Assembly: GCA_050015455.1 (NCBI GenBank)
Contig: JBEKBJ010000003.1
Coordinates: 36,202-100,201, forward strand
Direction: 5' to 3'
Length of the DNA: 64,000 nt
Source: Candidatus Binatia bacterium
GTDB lineage: Bacteria > Desulfobacterota > Binatia > HRBIN30
This document shows, piece by piece, positions 3,290 through 53,304 of the stretch. The notes under the pieces were generated by a model, which had not been told where the DNA came from, searched no databases, and was given only the letters and a program-made list of their open reading frames with translations. The position numbers and the translations under genes were made by a program. The first letter of the stretch is position 1. Each line of letters opens with the position of its first letter.

Positions 3290-5614
3290 ATGCGTCCCCG
3301 CGACCTTGCCGCATTAGAATTCGATCGCGTTCGCAACCGGCTGGCGGACTTCGCCTGCTCGTCGGCGGGGAAGGAAGCGTGTTGCGCCCTGGCACCGAAG
3401 AGTGAACGGAGCGCGGCCGAAAACGCGCTCGAGGCCGTCTGGCAGTGCTTCCGCTTGCTCGAGGAGCAGGGAACCATCCCGTTGTCGGAGTTCCCCGACA
3501 TCCGCTTCTCCTTGCGCACGGCGGCACGCGAAAGCTCTGTCCTCGATGGCAAGTCGCTGGTCGAAGTCCGGACGGTGCTCGCGGCAGTTGAGGAAATGCG
3601 GGCATTTTTGAGGAAGCAGGCAAAATCGTTTCCCGCGCTGGCGGAGCTGCCGGACCAGCTCGTGCCGTTGCCCGAACTGCACCACACGCTGACGCTTGCC
3701 CTCGACGAGAACGGCGTTGTGAGCGACGACGCCAGCGATGAGCTGGCGGAGGTGCGGCGCACGATTCGCCAACTGCGGGCGAAGCTCACGCGCCGGCTGG
3801 AAGATCTGCTGACGCAGCCGACGATGGCCGAGATGCTCGGTGATCGCTTCGTGACCCTGCGCAACAACCGCTTCGTGCTCCCGATTAAGACCGCCATGGC
3901 CAGGCAGTTTGATGGCGTGGTGCAGGACCGCTCGGCTTCCGGCGAGACCACGTTCATCGAGCCGTTGTTCGCGGTCGAGCTGAATAACCACCTGCTTATG
4001 GCCAGCAAGGAAGAGGAATGGCTGGTGCGGCGGATCCTCGGCGACCTCACGGCGCTGGTGCGCGCCGACCACGAGACCATTCTCGCCAGCTTCGGCGCCC
4101 TCGTCGAGATTGATGCGTTGGCGGCGCGGGCAAAGTTCGCGCAGCGCTACCGGTGCACGCAGCCGCACTTCGATGGGGAATTGGTGCTCGAACAGGCGCG
4201 CCACCCGCTGCTGCTGTTCGGCGACCGCGAGGTCACGCCCATCAACCTGCGCATCCCGAACGGCAAGCAAGTGCTGGTGATCACCGGCCCGAACACCGGG
4301 GGCAAGACCGTCGCGCTGAAGACGTTGGGGCTCATGGCGCTCATGGCACAGAGCGGCATGCTGATCCCTGCCGCCGAGGGCGCCCGCCTACCGTGCTTCC
4401 GGGCGATCTATGCTGACATCGGCGACGAGCAGAACCTCGAGCGCAGCCTCTCGACGTTCTCGGCGCACGTGGCGAATCTGACCGAGATCATCGAAGCGTG
4501 CGAGGCCCCGGCGCTGGTGCTGCTCGATGAGCCCGGGGTGGGCACGGATCCGGAGGACGGCGCGGCGCTCGGCATCGGCATGATCCAGATCCTCGAGGAC
4601 ACTGGAGCTCATGTCGCTCTCAGCACCCATTACGCGCCGCTGAAGCTGTTCGCGCTCAGCCATGACGCCTGCATCACGGCGGCGGTCGATTTCGATGTCG
4701 AAGCCATGCTGCCACGCTATCGGCTACGCTATCACTCGATCGGGGAAAGCTTGGCGCTGCCGATTGCGCGCCGGCTCGGCATGCCCGCCGCCGTTCTCGA
4801 CGCCGCCGGCGCCGCACGCACCGAGCAGGCGAAGGCGCTGGCCGCCGCCGTGGCCGCGCTCGAAGCCAACCGCCGCCGCTACGAAGAACGCCTCAGCGAA
4901 GTCGAGGAACGAGCCCGGAGCGCGGCAGGGGCACAAGAGGAAGTCAAGCATTTGTTGGAGGAGCTACGCGAAAAACGCCGCCGCCGTTGGGCGGACGAAC
5001 TGCACGCCGCCCGCGACTTCGTACGCACGCTGCGTGAGCAAGGCCGCGAACTGCTTGCCGCTGTGGAGCGCGGCGTCGCTGATCGGCAAGCATTCAATCG
5101 ATGGCTCCGGCAGCAAGAAGCGGAAATCGGCGCGCGTGAGGCGGAGTTTGCCGCCCAGTTACTCCCAATGTCCGCGCCGCCGCGAATCGGCGATCAGGTT
5201 CAGGTCGGCGACACCGGCATCCGTGGCCAGCTGCTGTCGGTGGACGGGGAGCGTGCCCGCATCCAGCGTGGCAACCTGCGCTTCGAAGTGCCGGCGGCGC
5301 AGCTGCACCGCATCGGCGAGACGGCACCAGCGGCAACGGAAGTGCACGTTGCCGCCGCACCGGAGGACACGCCGCAAGAGATCACGTTGTTGGGGCTACG
5401 GGCCAAAGAGGCCGTCGCTGAACTCGAACAATTCCTGGACCGAGCGGCACAGGCGCGTCACCCGTCGGTGCGCATCATCCACGGCGTCGGCAGTGGTGCA
5501 CTGAAGCGCGCCGTGCAGGACTACCTGTCAACGTCGCCGTACTGCACAGCTTTTCGCGCCGGCGAGCCGCGCGAAGGTGGCGCCGGAGTCACGGTCGCCG
5601 AGATTGCGTGCTGA
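3290..5614 (+). CDS. mutS2: Endonuclease MutS2 (MutS ATPase domain plus C-terminal Smr domain)
   Basis: Walker A TGPNTGGKT, the MutS domain V pattern and a C-terminal Smr domain (RIIHGVGSGALKRAVQDYL). Confidence 0.9.
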   Translation: MRPRDLAALEFDRVRNRLADFACSSAGKEACCALAPKSERSAAENALEAVWQCFRLLEEQGTIPLSEFPDIRFSLRTAARESSVLDGKSLVEVRTVLAAVEEMRAFLRKQAKSFPALAELPDQLVPLPELHHTLTLALDENGVVSDDASDELAEVRRTIRQLRAKLTRRLEDLLTQPTMAEMLGDRFVTLRNNRFVLPIKTAMARQFDGVVQDRSASGETTFIEPLFAVELNNHLLMASKEEEWLVRRILGDLTALVRADHETILASFGALVEIDALAARAKFAQRYRCTQPHFDGELVLEQARHPLLLFGDREVTPINLRIPNGKQVLVITGPNTGGKTVALKTLGLMALMAQSGMLIPAAEGARLPCFRAIYADIGDEQNLERSLSTFSAHVANLTEIIEACEAPALVLLDEPGVGTDPEDGAALGIGMIQILEDTGAHVALSTHYAPLKLFALSHDACITAAVDFDVEAMLPRYRLRYHSIGESLALPIARRLGMPAAVLDAAGAARTEQAKALAAAVAALEANRRRYEERLSEVEERARSAAGAQEEVKHLLEELREKRRRRWADELHAARDFVRTLREQGRELLAAVERGVADRQAFNRWLRQQEAEIGAREAEFAAQLLPMSAPPRIGDQVQVGDTGIRGQLLSVDGERARIQRGNLRFEVPAAQLHRIGETAPAATEVHVAAAPEDTPQEITLLGLRAKEAVAELEQFLDRAAQARHPSVRIIHGVGSGALKRAVQDYLSTSPYCTAFRAGEPREGGAGVTVAEIAC

Positions 5615-6900: not shown

Positions 6901-8886
6901 GTGTCGAGCAAGCGAAGTTGGGGTTGGATCTGCGCCGTCATAGCACTGCTCGCACTCGGTCGGACAGCAACGCTGGCGCAAGTGGTTCCGATCCGCGGTG
7001 ATGCCAATTGTGACGGGCGGGTCGATGCAAGCGACATCGACGCCGTCATCGCGCTCCTGTTCGGTGAGGCCGGCGCCTGCCCGAGCGCAGAGGCCAACGC
7101 GGACGCCAACCAGGACGGTAGCGTGACTGCGGCGGACATCACCGCGGTGGAGCTGCTCCTACCGCTGGCGGGGCCGACGGGTACCCCGAGCGTAACCCCG
7201 ACGCCCTCAGAAACCCCGACCATCACGCCGAGCCCGCTGCCGAGCGTAACGCCGACCATCACACGCACCCCCGTTCCAAGCCTGACCCCAACGATCACGC
7301 GCACTCCGACTCGGACCGTGACGCCGAGCGTCACACTCACCCCGACACGCAGCTTCACTCCAACTGCGACCGCAGTCGCGACGGGTACCCCTACCGCGAC
7401 CAAGACTGCCACGTCCACCGCAACCCCGAGTAAAACCCGCACCTTCACACCGACTCGAACCTCAACTGCAACCCCCACCGCCACGTGGTCGCCTACCTTG
7501 ACGCGAACGCCAACGGTCACGCGCACACCCACGTCAACCTCCACTGTAACGCCCACTCCAACCCCATCGGCTACGCGACCGCCGACGAGCACGCCGACCC
7601 CGACCCCATCGCCAACCGTGACTCGGACCCCGTCTTCCACAGCGACGCCGTCGCCCACGCGCACCCCGTCACCGACGCCGACACCGTCGCAGACCGCGAC
7701 GGCGACCCGGACGCCTTCGAACACATCAACGCCAACGCCCACACGCACTCCGTCACTGACGCCGACACCGTCGCAGACTGCGACAGTGACTCGGACGCCT
7801 TCGAACACGTCAACGCCAACGCCCACACCCTCACCGACGAACACTTCGACGCAGACGCCGACGCACCCACCGTCAAAGGGGCCGATAGTAAACTACTTCG
7901 GCCTGACGACGGGGGATAACTCGGTGCTGACGCCGGATGACACGGACGCGGAAGGCAACCCAGTCTACACGCGTCCGATCGGCTTCGGCTTCTTCATCGT
8001 CATCGAAGCGAGGCCGGGCACGAGCGGGCTTCTGCCGCAGCCTATGTTCGAAAACAGCAATCCCTCCCAGCTGCCCGACGTCCAGATCGAAGCGAATCAG
8101 TCATTGGGAACGGGGGCGGGCCGCGGTAGCTTGGCGGTTTGCGACAACGGGCCGCCGCCGACGCCGCTCGGCGGTGTACCGGGGATCAACCCGCCAAGCT
8201 TTGACCCGACATCGCAGTTCATCGCCAATGCGCTGAACGACTTTGGCTGCCGGTTTGCCGACAACACCTCGGCCCCGTGTACAAAAGTCGACGACAGCGG
8301 GATCAACAAATACGTGATGGCGAACTCCAAAGCGCAGTATTGCACGAACACGGTCCTCGGTGCCGAGTTGGCATTCCCGCCCGGAGACACCCTGCTCACC
8401 GTCGAACTGCGCGACTACAACGCCGCAACTCAGACCCACGTCAACACCGGGTATCCTGTGAGTCTAGTGGTCCGCGTGCCGACCCCGGCACCAACCGGCA
8501 CCCCAACCGAGACCTTCCCTCCGACGCTGACGCCGACCATCACACTTACCAGAACACCCAGTACAACGCGGACCGTTACCGCCACGCCGACGATCACGTC
8601 GACCCCGCTCCCCAGTTCGACGTGGACGAATACGCCGCTACCGACGGTCACCGCGACGTTTACGCCGACGCTTGTTCCAACTGCCACTGGAACGCTCACC
8701 CCGAGTGCGACGGCGACGGCGACACCGACAGCAAGCCCGACGTCAAGCCCCAGCCCAACCCCGACACCGAGCGCAACCACGGCGCCCAGCGGGACGCCGA
8801 CAGCCACTTCGATGCCGAGCACGACCGAGACGGAAACCCCGGCAGTAGCCGATACCGCGACTGCAACTGAGACACCCGGGATCTGA
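6901..8886 (+). CDS. Secreted modular protein: signal peptide, N-terminal dockerin-like double repeat, long Thr/Pro-rich linker, central globular domain of unknown function, C-terminal TP-rich tail
   Basis: GTG start at 6901 with GAGG 5 nt upstream, followed by a hydrophobic signal peptide. GDANCDGRVDASDIDAVIALL and NADANQDGSVTAADITAVELLL fit the dockerin repeat consensus. About 260 aa of TPT/TPS low-complexity sequence follows. The central ~240 aa domain is Cys-containing with no motif I recognise. Confidence 0.7.
   Translation: MSSKRSWGWICAVIALLALGRTATLAQVVPIRGDANCDGRVDASDIDAVIALLFGEAGACPSAEANADANQDGSVTAADITAVELLLPLAGPTGTPSVTPTPSETPTITPSPLPSVTPTITRTPVPSLTPTITRTPTRTVTPSVTLTPTRSFTPTATAVATGTPTATKTATSTATPSKTRTFTPTRTSTATPTATWSPTLTRTPTVTRTPTSTSTVTPTPTPSATRPPTSTPTPTPSPTVTRTPSSTATPSPTRTPSPTPTPSQTATATRTPSNTSTPTPTRTPSLTPTPSQTATVTRTPSNTSTPTPTPSPTNTSTQTPTHPPSKGPIVNYFGLTTGDNSVLTPDDTDAEGNPVYTRPIGFGFFIVIEARPGTSGLLPQPMFENSNPSQLPDVQIEANQSLGTGAGRGSLAVCDNGPPPTPLGGVPGINPPSFDPTSQFIANALNDFGCRFADNTSAPCTKVDDSGINKYVMANSKAQYCTNTVLGAELAFPPGDTLLTVELRDYNAATQTHVNTGYPVSLVVRVPTPAPTGTPTETFPPTLTPTITLTRTPSTTRTVTATPTITSTPLPSSTWTNTPLPTVTATFTPTLVPTATGTLTPSATATATPTASPTSSPSPTPTPSATTAPSGTPTATSMPSTTETETPAVADTATATETPGI
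7666..7833 (+). repeat. Tandem direct duplication of an 84-bp unit (x2, near-identical) inside the TP-linker coding region
   Basis: ccgtcaccgacgccgacaccgtcgcagaccgcgac...cgcact is followed immediately by ccgtcactgacgccgacaccgtcgcagactgcgac...ccctc. Each unit encodes a ~28-aa [13 protein letters not shown][AV]TRTPSNTSTPTPT[RP] module. Confidence 0.8.
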
Positions 8887-50177: not shown

Positions 50178-50411
50178 TTACACCGTGTCGAGGACGCGGT
50201 GGTATTCGTCGGGAGTCACGCCGATTTCTCGTAGGATTTCGCGAATCAGCGGCCGAGCCAACTCCCGGCCCGGATGATGCGGGATGGAGGTGCCGCGCCC
50301 GTCCGGGTGGCGATAAAAGGCGTGGCTTCCCTTCTGACGACTCTTCTGAAACCCAAGCGCGAACAGCACGCGCTCCAATGTGGCCGCATCAACAATGCGC
50401 AGGCGGCTCAT
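50178..50411 (-). CDS. hicA: HicA-family mRNA interferase toxin
   Basis: GSHAFYRHPDGRGTSIPHHPGRELARPLIREILREIG resembles the HicA/YcfA fold. The gene overlaps the hicB stop by 4 nt (ATGA). Confidence 0.75.
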   Translation of the reverse strand: MSRLRIVDAATLERVLFALGFQKSRQKGSHAFYRHPDGRGTSIPHHPGRELARPLIREILREIGVTPDEYHRVLDTV

Positions 50412-50638
50412 CGCTCCAGTTCAAGCTCGTGGACGCCATAAAAGCTGGGGAACTCGGTGAGGCCACGGCTCTCGGCCTCTTCGAGGCACAGTTCGACCAC
50501 CTCGCGAACGTTCCGCTCAAGTTCGTCAAGCGTTGCCGCCTGCGTGTGGGCTCCGGGAAGTGTCGGGACGGTGGCGACGAACATGCCGCTCTCGTCATCA
50601 CGTTCAATGATGACGGGGAACCGATACCGTTTGGCCAT
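50408..50638 (-). CDS. hicB: HicB-family antitoxin (N-terminal RNase H-like fold only, no obvious DNA-binding domain)
   Basis: FPVIIERDDESGMFVATVPTLPGAHTQAATLDELERNVREVVELCLE is a UPF0150/HicB N-domain pattern. Start set at MAKRYRF. Confidence 0.7.
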   Translation of the reverse strand: MAKRYRFPVIIERDDESGMFVATVPTLPGAHTQAATLDELERNVREVVELCLEEAESRGLTEFPSFYGVHELELER

Positions 50639-50752
50639 GCGCACCTCCGACTCGCCACCTATAGCACATCCGATCGCACGTTGCGCTCTGCGTGCCTGAT
50701 AAGCATTTAGCCGAACCGCGCGTCCCTGACACCCGGCACCTGACACCGCGTG

Positions 50753-51371
50753 CTACCCGCATCCCTCCAGCGCGTGGTTCACGGCGGTGTGGATCTCATC
50801 CACGGTGATCTGGCCGTCGTGGTTTGCGTCCCCTGCGAAGCAGCCATCGATATTCGCGTTCCCCAGGGCAACATCCACCATTGTCAGCAGCTCGCTTACG
50901 GTTACAGTCCCATCCCCGTTACAGTCGCCCGCGCATGGGGCTACTGGCAGGTCCAACGCAAAGGTTGCCTCGTTGTTGCTACGATCAACGTCCGCCACGA
51001 CGCCCGCGTCATCTGCCGTCACTGTAATATAGTTGCTCCGGGCTCGTCAGCGTTCCGGGCGCGAGGCTGAGCGCAAGTTGCGCCAGAGCGCCGGCATCGA
51101 GGGCGGGGACGATCGTCGTCGTGATCGGTGAACCGGATGTGCCGGCGTAGCGAATGGCCAGCGTGGACGAGGGCGCTGCCGGCGCGCAGTTGTTGACGAC
51201 CTGCACGATCACACTTGCCGACCCGTCCGCTTGCACGGAGCGCGTGAGAATGGTCACCGCGAGGTCGGTCCCGCCGACGTTCACGGACAAGCGGTTGTTG
51301 GCCGGATTGAAGTCGCTGATCGTACCGTCCGGATCGATGACCGCAAAGAGCGTGTTGGGTGCCGGCACCAC
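50753..51371 (-). pseudogene. 5'-truncated, frameshifted gene fragment: beta-rich domain followed by a complete dockerin-like double repeat
   Basis: Two overlapping frames are present. 51371-51009 encodes ...VIDPDGTISDFNPANNRLSVNVGG... 51022-50753 encodes GDCNGDGTVTVSELLTMVDVAL...GDANHDGQITVDEIHTAVNHAL. Only about 40 nt separate it from the upstream gene's stop. Confidence 0.55.
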
Positions 51372-51413
51372 CCAGGCCGCCGGAGAGCTTCCACGCGGCG
51401 CGGTCCTCTGCGG

Positions 51414-51914
51414 TCAGCGTTTCTTCCGCTGGTTGACGAGACGCGCCAGGAAGGCACGGTCGAGCTTGTCCTTGTCGCGGTACGTGTCCTTCATCCGCAG
51501 GAGCAGCTCGGGGTTGGCGAACGGGATGGGGACGCCGTCGACCTCGACGAGGTCTACGTGCCGGCTGGCCTCTTCGTAAGCGATTCCGCACGCCGCCTTC
51601 ATGAGGTCGACAACGATCTCATCGGCCACGCGCACCACGGCGTAGCGGCCAAGATCGTCGGGCGCCACGTCACGGACGGCCTGATCCTGGAGCTTCAGCA
51701 GTGCCCGCCGCACCCGCTCTTGATTCGCCGGGGAGATGTCGATCAGCAGGTCGATGTCGCCCGTGGCCCGCGGGAAGCCGGCCTGAATGACGGCCATCCC
51801 GCCAATGACCACGTAGGCTGCACCCGCCGCGTTCAGGTCTCGGCAGAGAGCCACAAGGTCCTCTAGGAGCGGGGGGCGTGCTTCCGGGGCCTCGTCAGCA
51901 TCGTCAGGGACCAT
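51414..51914 (-). CDS. Small nucleotidyltransferase-fold protein (Lnu/ANT(2'')-like minimal NTase)
   Basis: AYVVIGGMAVIQAGFPRATGDIDLLID resembles the hG[GS]...D.D NTase motif of lincosamide/aminoglycoside nucleotidyltransferases. The Arg-rich N-terminal extension of the longer ORF is discounted. Confidence 0.5.
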   Translation of the reverse strand: MVPDDADEAPEARPPLLEDLVALCRDLNAAGAAYVVIGGMAVIQAGFPRATGDIDLLIDISPANQERVRRALLKLQDQAVRDVAPDDLGRYAVVRVADEIVVDLMKAACGIAYEEASRHVDLVEVDGVPIPFANPELLLRMKDTYRDKDKLDRAFLARLVNQRKKR

Positions 51915-52105
51915 GCGTCGCTCTCTTCGAAACTCGCGAAGCGATACACTCCCTTGGGGATGAACGGCTTGTCGCCGCGGAGCCGCAAAGCGATCTCCAG
52001 CAGACCCGCGGCGGCGGCGAGCCCGCCTCGCCACCTTCGCCGTCCGACAACCTTCATGGGCAGCTCGTCGCTTGGAAGCGCGGTTCGTCGCCAGTCGACC
52101 ATCAT
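51863..52105 (-). CDS. Hypothetical small protein upstream of and overlapping the NTase gene; possible cognate partner
   Basis: 80-aa ORF ending ...FIPKGVYRFASFEESDAWSL.... It overlaps the NTase start by about 50 nt in another frame. Confidence 0.3.
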   Translation of the reverse strand: MMVDWRRTALPSDELPMKVVGRRRWRGGLAAAAGLLEIALRLRGDKPFIPKGVYRFASFEESDAWSLTMLTRPRKHAPRS

Positions 52106-52600
52106 GTCGAATGCATAGTATCACACGCCCGCCAAGTCGAGCTAGAAGCCCGGATCATTCATGCATCGATCGACTGCGAGCGCGAAATGGACGGCCGGGC
52201 GGCCGAGGCGGAACGTGAGGAGCATCTCCGCTGTCCACCGGCCGATGCCGATGTGGTCGAGGATGAGTTCGATGGGCCGTCAGGCCGCGACTCGGCGCGC
52301 GCGCAGCTCGGCCACCAGTTCCAAGTCGGGTGCCGTCGCGGTCGCCTCACTTCTCCAGATCAACCGGTCTTGCTGAGTTTGACGCTCTTCTCTGCGATGC
52401 CGGCGAGCGCCGACTGGCAGAGGAGCTTGCCAACAAGAAGAGACAGGGAGACTCCGGCAAGAGATTCGGGCTCTGGATGCACGTCCCGGTGTCGTCTTCC
52501 CCACTTTGCAAGAGAGATGATGAAACGAGCGCGCCGGCAGGATCATCAGCCCGTGCCCGGATCTTGCTTGGAAGCCTGTTGCTTGCTGTCCGCGACGCTG

Positions 52601-52981
52601 CTAGTCGTCGGCGCCTGGGGCTTGGATCAGATCGGAACGTTTACCTTTGCGCGGGCGCTCGGGTGCGAGTCTCCGTTCGTCGAGCATGTGGCGGACAGCG
52701 AGGATGGGGTGGTGCCGGAGCATACGCGGGCCGGCGTAACGCATCACCGTCTGCACCTGCTGGCGCAGCGACGGCTTGTAGCAGTGGATGGGGCAGTTGG
52801 CGCAGGTGGGCTTGTCATCACCGTAGGGACATTTCTCCAGCCGCTGCCGCGCGTAGGCCTGAAGCTCAGCACATTGCACACACAAGCTGCGCTTCATGCC
52901 GTGCTGGTCGCGGCAGAACAGCCGGATCATCGCCTCGATGGTCCGGCGCTCTCGGTTGGTTCTCGTCGCCGCGGCGTTCAT
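52601..52981 (-). CDS. YgbA-like 'nitrous oxide-stimulated promoter' family protein
   Basis: MIRLFCRDQHG...LCVQCAELQAYARQRLEKCPYGDDKPTCANCPIHCYKPSLRQQVQTVMRYAGPRML matches the conserved Cys/His pattern of YgbA-family proteins. Confidence 0.65.
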   Translation of the reverse strand: MNAAATRTNRERRTIEAMIRLFCRDQHGMKRSLCVQCAELQAYARQRLEKCPYGDDKPTCANCPIHCYKPSLRQQVQTVMRYAGPRMLRHHPILAVRHMLDERRLAPERPRKGKRSDLIQAPGADD

Positions 52982-53304
52982 GAATAGATGATCGACCGCC
53001 CCCACCCTACCCGGGCGGTTGAAACCGCGGCCACAAACTGCGCCAAGCCCGCCGGAGCTTGTCTTGAGCCCCGTCGAAGGGCGGGCTCCCCACCCAACAT
53101 CAGCCCAGTCGGCGCAGGCCGACTTCGTGCTTTTCGTAGGCGCGAATTCATTCGCCGGCCGGCGAAACGTTTATCCACACTCTCTTAAGCCGGCTTGCTC
53201 TTATCACGCCCAGACATTGATCCGCGGGCGGCGCCGCCCTCACGCACAGACTTCTGTGTCCAGCACCCGAGAGCTTGGGACTTCTCAGCCGGAGGGCGAG
53301 GAAC

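Follow-up and report, generated by a model that had tools for sequence, protein, structure and literature searches.

The 64,000-nt stretch of contig JBEKBJ010000003.1 of Candidatus Binatia bacterium that was analysed here (the window) carries on its minus strand two overlapping genes, a small open reading frame (ORF) for a basic protein of 80 aa followed by the gene of a minimal nucleotidyltransferase (NTase) of 166 aa. Based on sequence comparison, this pair is probably a two-gene module of the toxin-antitoxin (TA) type, of the same kind as MenAT and AbiE and with a new family of antitoxins; the probability of this reading is estimated at about 0.6. A preliminary description of the locus had presented it as an uncharacterised, tightly linked module and as a candidate TA pair rather than an MNT-HepT pair, and this core of the description is supported. 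Both ORFs were found at the positions given there, with an overlap of 52 nt, and both contain the motifs reported for them, VIGGMAVIQAGFPRATGDIDLLID in the NTase (G38, G39 ... D53-x-D55) and KGVYRFASFEESDAW in the small protein. The coordinates of all features are collected in Table 1.

The linkage of the two genes was followed in a scan of one genome per species, which yielded 261 relatives. Eighty loci were kept, and the small ORF was located around them by a six-frame hidden Markov model search. In all 79 loci that could be tested it lay immediately upstream of the NTase gene, in the same orientation, while the 80th locus ends at a contig edge. The small ORF is thus conserved, and it stands beside the NTase gene wherever this could be judged, as expected from the preliminary description. 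At least eight phyla are represented, including Verrucomicrobiota (29 loci), Acidobacteriota (18) and Ignavibacteriota/Bacteroidota (12), with further loci in Myxococcota and 'delta' groups, Bdellovibrionota, Kiritimatiellia, Lentisphaerae and Binatia. A conserved third gene was not found among these loci, the biggest neighbour family being present in 6 of the 80.

The homology search for the NTase returned 1366 proteins (E ≤ 1e-3). Its best 120 homologues are 70-98% identical and mostly 165-170 aa long, with a minority of shorter entries that were called from an internal start. The protein lies above no Pfam cut-off: DUF2204 reached 18.6 bits (cut-off 20.3), DUF6036 17.0 bits (23.6), AbiEii (PF08843) 16.8 bits with an E-value of 0.0066 (gathering threshold 22.5) and MdcG 17.1 bits. 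NCBIfam gave no match and PADLOC a weak match to AbiEii. A precomputed match to PF09970 is recorded for 3 of the 120 close homologues listed, which places the family at the edge of DUF2204. When the family profile was searched against the Protein Data Bank (PDB) with hmmsearch, exactly one solved protein was matched, 8AN4, which is MenT1 (Rv0078A), with an E-value of 7.3e-10. An hhalign comparison of 74 family members with 111 proteins of the MenT1 family gave a probability of 97.7% and an E-value of 2.3e-12 over 138 columns.

In this alignment T51, D53, D55, K142 and D152 of the NTase correspond to T39, D41, D43, K137 and D152 of MenT1. These five residues, together with G38 and G39, are conserved in 72-74 of the 74 family members (K142 and D152 in all of them), and D149 is present in 73. 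D41, K137 and D152 of MenT1 are needed for toxicity, and T39 is auto-phosphorylated upon binding of MenA1 (PMC10435456, PMC11375011). Both NTases are acidic, with isoelectric points (pI) of 4.9 for the protein of the window and 5.15 for MenT1. From these profile comparisons the NTase is assigned to a MenT1-like branch just outside the Pfam AbiEii boundary.

The term 'Lnu/ANT-like', which had been used for the NTase in the preliminary description, can be kept at fold level only. The comparison of the NTase with known proteins gave values of 9.7 for TM1012, 9.4 for MenT1, 7.9 for ANT(2''), 7.7 for LnuA, 6.5 for MenT3 and 5.9 for MenT4, and the term therefore describes the fold. It does not describe the sequence, since the nearest characterised sequence relative is the toxin MenT1 of the AbiEii/DUF1814 superfamily, and 'toxin-type', which had been offered beside it, therefore fits better.

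Two other metagenome-assembled genomes (MAGs) of Binatia type, with loci L001 and L042, share 95-97% nucleotide identity with the window over the cassette listed in Table 1 only, and the flanks are unrelated. As the identity is confined to it, this cassette of about 790 bp is the unit that moves, is exchanged or is retained. The Binatia loci also lie near other TA genes, namely HicAB in the window, PIN at L042, Unstab_antitox at L078 and XRE-HTH at L001.

The two genes differ in how they decay. The NTase gene is broken beside an intact small ORF in 6 of the 79 NTase-anchored loci, and an intact NTase gene without the small ORF was found in none of the 79. The lesions comprise a frameshift (L042), an in-frame deletion of residues 74-112 (L078), a stop codon at G38 (L060), unrelated sequence past residue 98 (L059) and truncations (L044 and L051). 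A second set of five loci was reached via divergent homologues of the small ORF. In this set the NTase is lost save for a trace of residues 4-26 at L086 and reduced to remnants at L087/L088 and L090, each time with the small ORF intact next to it; at L089 the module decays as a whole, and at L091 the contig ends too early to judge. Both sets together provide at least nine loci with a decayed NTase gene beside an intact small ORF. The asymmetric decay, the identity restricted to the cassette and the TA-rich context in Binatia favour a TA relationship with the NTase as the toxin.

One match was found among 72,556 plasmids. This sole plasmid-borne relative (L085, 2762-3504; 15092-15834 of NZ_AP021845.1) is located on pAZI09 of the cultured strain Azospira sp. 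I09. The plasmid, a conjugative megaplasmid of the IncP type with a length of 397 kb, carries it within a run of small hypothetical genes. Its NTase is 42% identical to that of the window and its partner carries IPKGLYRFKSFEEAN. For experiments, pAZI09 would offer a practical entry point.

Both genes show the pattern of protein-coding selection. In 74-76 loci the nucleotide diversity at codon positions 1, 2 and 3 was 0.45, 0.40 and 0.66 for the small ORF and 0.35, 0.26 and 0.64 for the NTase gene, both taken outside the overlap, while within the overlap all three positions are constrained (0.34-0.47). Neither ORF is a chance ORF. The peptides encoded in the overlap are both conserved, the tail of the small protein as W.L.MLTRPRK and the N-terminus of the NTase as M.P.DA...EARPPLL. 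In most of the 79 loci the overlap measures 28-82 nt, with a mode of 52, in the same frame relation; in the window the NTase gene is read in frame -1 with respect to the small ORF. The NTase has an ATG, GTG or TTG start at the conserved N-terminus in almost all loci. The genes are separated at L023, L044 and L067, and they overlap by 4 nt at L068 and by 1 nt on the Azospira plasmid. Among natural cases of dual coding tied to coupled expression, this conserved overlap of about 50 nt, with its constraint in both frames, is unusually clean.

Two single loci were observed in connection with the overlap. At L064 (Opitutales, 3807-4007) the conserved PPRQSDLVSLCRELN stretch is closely preceded by a stop codon in the NTase frame, and this frame offers no ATG, GTG or TTG ahead of the GGM motif; the gene may have a non-canonical start, be a pseudogene or be affected by an error of assembly. 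At L021 (Acidobacteriota, 7342-7957, minus strand) a second, different minimal NTase of 151 aa with RATGDLDLWV lies about 3 kb from the pair. It scores 22.3 bits against DUF6036, just under the cut-off. An unrelated acidic ORF of 68 aa (..ADREFWQRLTPEERIEE..) precedes it and shares 47 nt with it. Among the NTases of this poorly annotated zone, a long overlap with a small partner may be more widespread.

For the small ORF, 66 close homologues were found, and its profile, searched exhaustively against 1.84 billion representatives, gave 493 clusters at 50% identity. Nearly all of these are standalone proteins of 60-130 aa, and the few longer ones are without an informative domain. The consensus reads KVVGRR...LRG.KPFIPKGVYRF.SFEE..W, or in another form KvvGrr...l..LRg..pf.PkGVyRF.sfEEad.W; in an alignment of 32 homologues G21, L42, P50, G52, V53, R55, F56, E61 and R72 are invariant and S62 and T71 nearly so. 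The protein is strongly basic and arginine-rich, with a pI of about 11.3 and a family median of 11.0. Searches of Pfam, NCBIfam, PADLOC and PHROG gave no family for it, and none of the 32 family members matched Pfam at E ≤ 10. As stated in the preliminary description, a HEPN partner is missing, the small ORF having no HEPN or other Pfam domain and its alignment no conserved R-x4-6-H. The PDB holds no sequence relative, the MenA1 chain of 8an5 included, and Foldseek found no meaningful match in the PDB to the model of the small protein. On this sequence evidence the small protein is considered a previously undescribed family. Both genes at present carry the name 'hypothetical protein' or no name, and definition of the two families would improve the annotation of well over 1000 database proteins.

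Two possible origins of the small protein were tried and found no support. A resemblance by eye to MenA1 ('DAW..TRP') was followed with MenA1 and three homologues recovered from MenT1 loci, all of which belong to PF18993 (Rv0078B). PF18993 was not matched, and hhalign of the small-protein family against the four MenA1 sequences gave a probability of 0.05%, or 2.8% with a 141-sequence profile. A detached C-terminal helical segment of MenT1, as in a split enzyme, had likewise been suggested by eye ('ELITLRGF' to 'EIALRLRGD'); hhalign with either complete MenT1 or the NTase family as the target was negative.

Among known systems MenA1-MenT1 of M. tuberculosis (Rv0078B-Rv0078A; PDB 8AN4, 8AN5; PMC10435456, PMC11375011) is the closest, as it combines a small partner that does not bind DNA with a compact NTase that has the same catalytic residues. 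It differs from the pair described here in its overlap (4 nt versus about 50 nt), in its partner (PF18993 with a pI of about 5 versus a protein outside PF18993 with a pI of about 11) and in its hosts, which are Actinobacteria, whereas the present cassette occurs in Verrucomicrobiota, Acidobacteriota, the FCB group, Myxococcota and Binatia. MenA1 has been found in only 21 genomes (PMC10435456). In AbiEi-AbiEii and MenA3-MenT3 (DUF1814, PF08843) the toxins are proteins of about 290 aa with a large C-terminal domain and the antitoxins winged-helix/COG5340 proteins of about 200 aa; neither is present in our pair. Against the minimal NTases of the DUF2204 and DUF6036 type, with TM1012 (PDB 2EWR), the NTase of the window scores under the curated cut-offs. 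To our knowledge no function or partner has been described for these proteins, and a search of the literature on DUF2204 and DUF6036 returned essentially nothing.

MntA-HepT (MNT-HEPN, type VII TA) resembles the pair as a two-gene operon of a minimal NTase and a small protein. It differs in its HEPN domain with Rx4-6H, in its gene order, the NTase being downstream in our pair, and in belonging to another branch of the superfamily. Judged by sequence, the module is formally outside PF08843, PF18993, MNT-HEPN, Lnu/ANT, DUF2204 and DUF6036. We know of studies of MenT/AbiEii-type NTase toxins almost only in Mycobacterium and Streptococcus. The antitoxins of this type are diverse. The cassette extends the MenT1-like branch into the poorly studied soil and freshwater phyla Verrucomicrobiota, Acidobacteriota, Ignavibacteriota, Myxococcota and Binatia, and brings in a partner family that carries no annotation, comprises about 490 clusters and has a very different, basic and arginine-rich chemistry.

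For a TA module of this kind we infer toxicity, a tRNA target, physical binding of the two proteins, a phosphorylation mechanism and translational interference. By analogy with MenT1, the NTase would be an active enzyme and add nucleotides to the 3' acceptor ends of tRNA and in this way block aminoacylation and translation. Neutralisation would come from binding of the basic small protein to the acidic NTase, which would either occlude the active site or, as in MenA1/MenT1, induce auto-phosphorylation of T51. The opposite charges of the NTase (pI 4.9) and its partner (pI ~11) are counted in favour of this reading, as is the gene order, which is the standard order of antitoxin followed by toxin. 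Because the start codon of the NTase and a Shine-Dalgarno-like site both lie inside the small ORF, ribosomes on the small ORF could limit initiation on the NTase and keep the partner in excess. A simple sigma-70 scan showed no two-hexamer promoter at the locus. The extended -10-like element lies within a block conserved with L001 and L042, and its position suggests a near-leaderless mRNA. If the partner does neutralise the NTase, the pair would provide a third, independent test of antitoxin-induced auto-phosphorylation of an active-site Thr/Ser as a general means of control.

A number of observations weigh against the TA reading, which was derived from sequence comparison. The NTase stays under the gathering threshold of PF08843, while a MenT1 fragment obtained 36.4 bits in the same Pfam search. 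Compared with MenT1 it is shorter by about 30 aa and is without the last ~40 residues, the alignment stopping at MenT1 position 157 of 197. The AlphaFold2 models are of moderate quality, with a pLDDT (predicted local distance difference test) of 71 for the NTase and 69 for the small protein, which is modelled as two helices. The small protein showed no similarity to MenA1 by hhalign, and MenA1 is acidic (pI 5.0) where the small protein is basic; the neutralisation mechanism of MenA1 is therefore not simply transferable. The 6:0 asymmetry of decay is not significant given the ratio of gene lengths (p ~0.12), the loci of the second set had been reached by way of intact small ORFs, and some of the NTase frameshifts may be assembly errors in MAGs. 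A phage link was not found either, as there were no matches in 50,697 phage records or in IMG/VR contigs and nothing significant in PHROGs. With the weak AbiEii match as the only one from PADLOC, the label 'defence' of the preliminary description was not borne out.

The genomic embedding of the pair outside Binatia also has to be counted on this side. In MAGs of Ignavibacteria/Bacteroidota the ATP synthase operon contains it, with atpA and atpG as its neighbours at distances of 0-25 nt (L012, 2279-5377; also L008, L014 and L024); in a variant the neighbours are atpG and ffh (L072 and L050). In Pyrinomonadaceae it stands between rho and glgA, and in Verrucomicrobiota it follows mutY, again in the same orientation as these genes and with hardly any spacing. 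An ATP synthase operon is an odd home for a TA module. The nearest-neighbour relations of the NTase mostly follow taxonomy, with some mixing across phyla. Such embedding among housekeeping genes, together with the agreement with taxonomy, fits a selfish role no better than a domesticated or regulatory one.

The alternative that survives best, which is nevertheless considered unlikely, is a two-subunit enzyme or domesticated regulator. The basic small protein would here act as the RNA-binding specificity subunit or the activating subunit that brings the acidic NTase to its RNA substrate, and the complex would tune the 3' ends of tRNA or other RNA in housekeeping or under stress. The same-strand embedding among core genes (atpA/atpG, atpG/ffh, rho/glgA) speaks for it, as do the high conservation across phyla (NTase identity 50-70%) and the basic nature of the partner, in contrast to the acidic known inhibitor MenA1. 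The C-terminus of the NTase being shorter than that of MenT1, a helper acting in trans is conceivable; however, the small protein has no similarity by hhalign to the missing C-terminal region of MenT1. A protein that only serves the enzyme would not be expected to outlast it, as the small ORF has repeatedly done where the NTase is lost, and the 95-97% identity of the cassette alone in unrelated contexts, together with the TA-rich surroundings in Binatia, looks like a mobile module. A more specific form of this explanation, in which the small protein is an RNA-binding adaptor or switch for the MenT-like NTase and this domesticated two-component modifier of RNA 3' ends is kept vertically in core operons (such as that of atpA and atpG in Ignavibacteria), tunes translation or tRNA pools, and has its subunit stoichiometry set by the overlap, is somewhat less likely again.

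A module of reversed polarity, as in type VII HepT/MntA, is improbable. In such a module growth would be inhibited by the small protein, for instance through contact with nucleic acids, and the NTase would nucleotidylate and thereby neutralise this protein. Minimal NTases do serve as antitoxins in MntA-HepT, the nearly invariant S62 and T71 would be modifiable and the basic character suits nucleic-acid binding. The gene order is opposite to that of MntA-HepT, though, with no conserved HEPN Rx4-6H, and the sequence relatives of the NTase are toxins. The small ORFs that remain intact without an NTase (L086 and L090) would be lethal if their product were the toxin.

An antibiotic-modifying enzyme of the Lnu/ANT type, with the upstream ORF as a regulatory leader, is still harder to reconcile with the data and is regarded as very improbable. 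The NTase has no match to a Lnu/ANT family in Pfam or NCBIfam, its identity to LnuA and ANT(2'') is 13-17%, and those enzymes are without an obligate small partner gene. Unlike a leader peptide, the upstream ORF encodes a conserved protein of 64-80 aa that is under amino-acid selection across phyla, and it persists after loss of the NTase.

Expression of the two ORFs as one fusion protein by programmed -1 ribosomal frameshifting in the overlap, for which the -1 frame of the NTase in nearly all loci and the missing start codon at L064 could be cited, was rejected: an X_XXY_YYZ slippery heptamer occurs in the overlap of 0 of 77 loci, almost all loci have their own NTase start codon, the genes are separate or overlap by 1-4 nt at L023, L044, L067, L068 and on the Azospira plasmid, and no fused homologues are present among the 493 small-protein clusters.

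Table 1. Features of the gene pair and its surroundings in the window.
Feature	Position	Strand	Remarks
Small partner gene, proposed antitoxin	52105..51863	-	80 aa from ATG 52105; ORF list and translation
Small ORF, alternative start	ATG 52057 (Met17)	-	yields 64 aa
Small ORF, conserved core	begins at ~residue 13	-	ELPMKVVGRRRW; homologue alignment
Minimal NTase gene, proposed toxin	51914..51414	-	166 aa; distant relative of MenT1/AbiEii superfamily
Dual-coding overlap, 52 nt	51863-51914	-	basic C-terminal tail of small protein WSLTMLTRPRKHAPRS and acidic N-terminus of NTase MVPDDADEAPEARPPLL
hGG motif (G38 G39)	51798-51803	-	codon coordinates
R49-x-T51-x-D53-x-D55	51750-51764	-	equivalents of MenT1 T39, D41, D43
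N-terminal catalytic motifs of NTase, whole span	51750..51803	-	hhalign residue mapping
C-terminal catalytic residues of NTase (K142, D149, D152)	51459..51491	-	K142 51489-51491; D152 51459-51461; K142/D152 correspond to MenT1 K137/D152
Shine-Dalgarno-like purine-rich GAAGAGAG	51921-51928	-	6 nt upstream of NTase ATG, within FEES codons of small ORF; putative internal ribosome-binding site
Extended -10-like element TGATACTAT	52115..52123	-	9 nt upstream of first ATG; putative promoter
Shared cassette	51387..52174	-	blastn of L001 and L042 against window; three-way alignment
hicA	50178-50411	-	77 aa; Pfam HicA_toxin 64.8 bits; apparently intact
HicB-like antitoxin gene	50408-50746	-	32.8 bits; 4-nt overlap with hicA
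Dockerin/EF-hand fragment	50753-51022	-	frame other than that of CARDB fragment
CARDB-domain fragment	51009-51371	-	frame other than that of dockerin/EF-hand fragment
DNA-3-methyladenine glycosylase II remnant (AlkA-like, HhH-GPD)	52125-52560	-	in-frame stop and frame change; best PDB match 2yg8, E 4.4e-4
YgbA_NO gene (nitrous oxide-stimulated promoter family)	52601-53005	-	149 bits; no relation to pair

The neighbours named in the preliminary description, hicBA and a decayed gene, were both recovered; they lie downstream of the pair, and the AlkA-like remnant and the YgbA_NO gene upstream. The CARDB and dockerin fragments (together 50753-51371) look like a broken gene of a secreted protein, and decayed genes therefore flank the pair on both sides. 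An Rfam search and a simple promoter and terminator scan of the locus detected nothing, and inverted and direct repeats were unremarkable. The AlkA-like remnant adjoins the pair directly upstream, and its final ~35 bp are also kept beside the cassette at L042. The gene upstream of the pair in Verrucomicrobiota, MutY, is likewise an HhH-GPD protein, which may be a coincidence.

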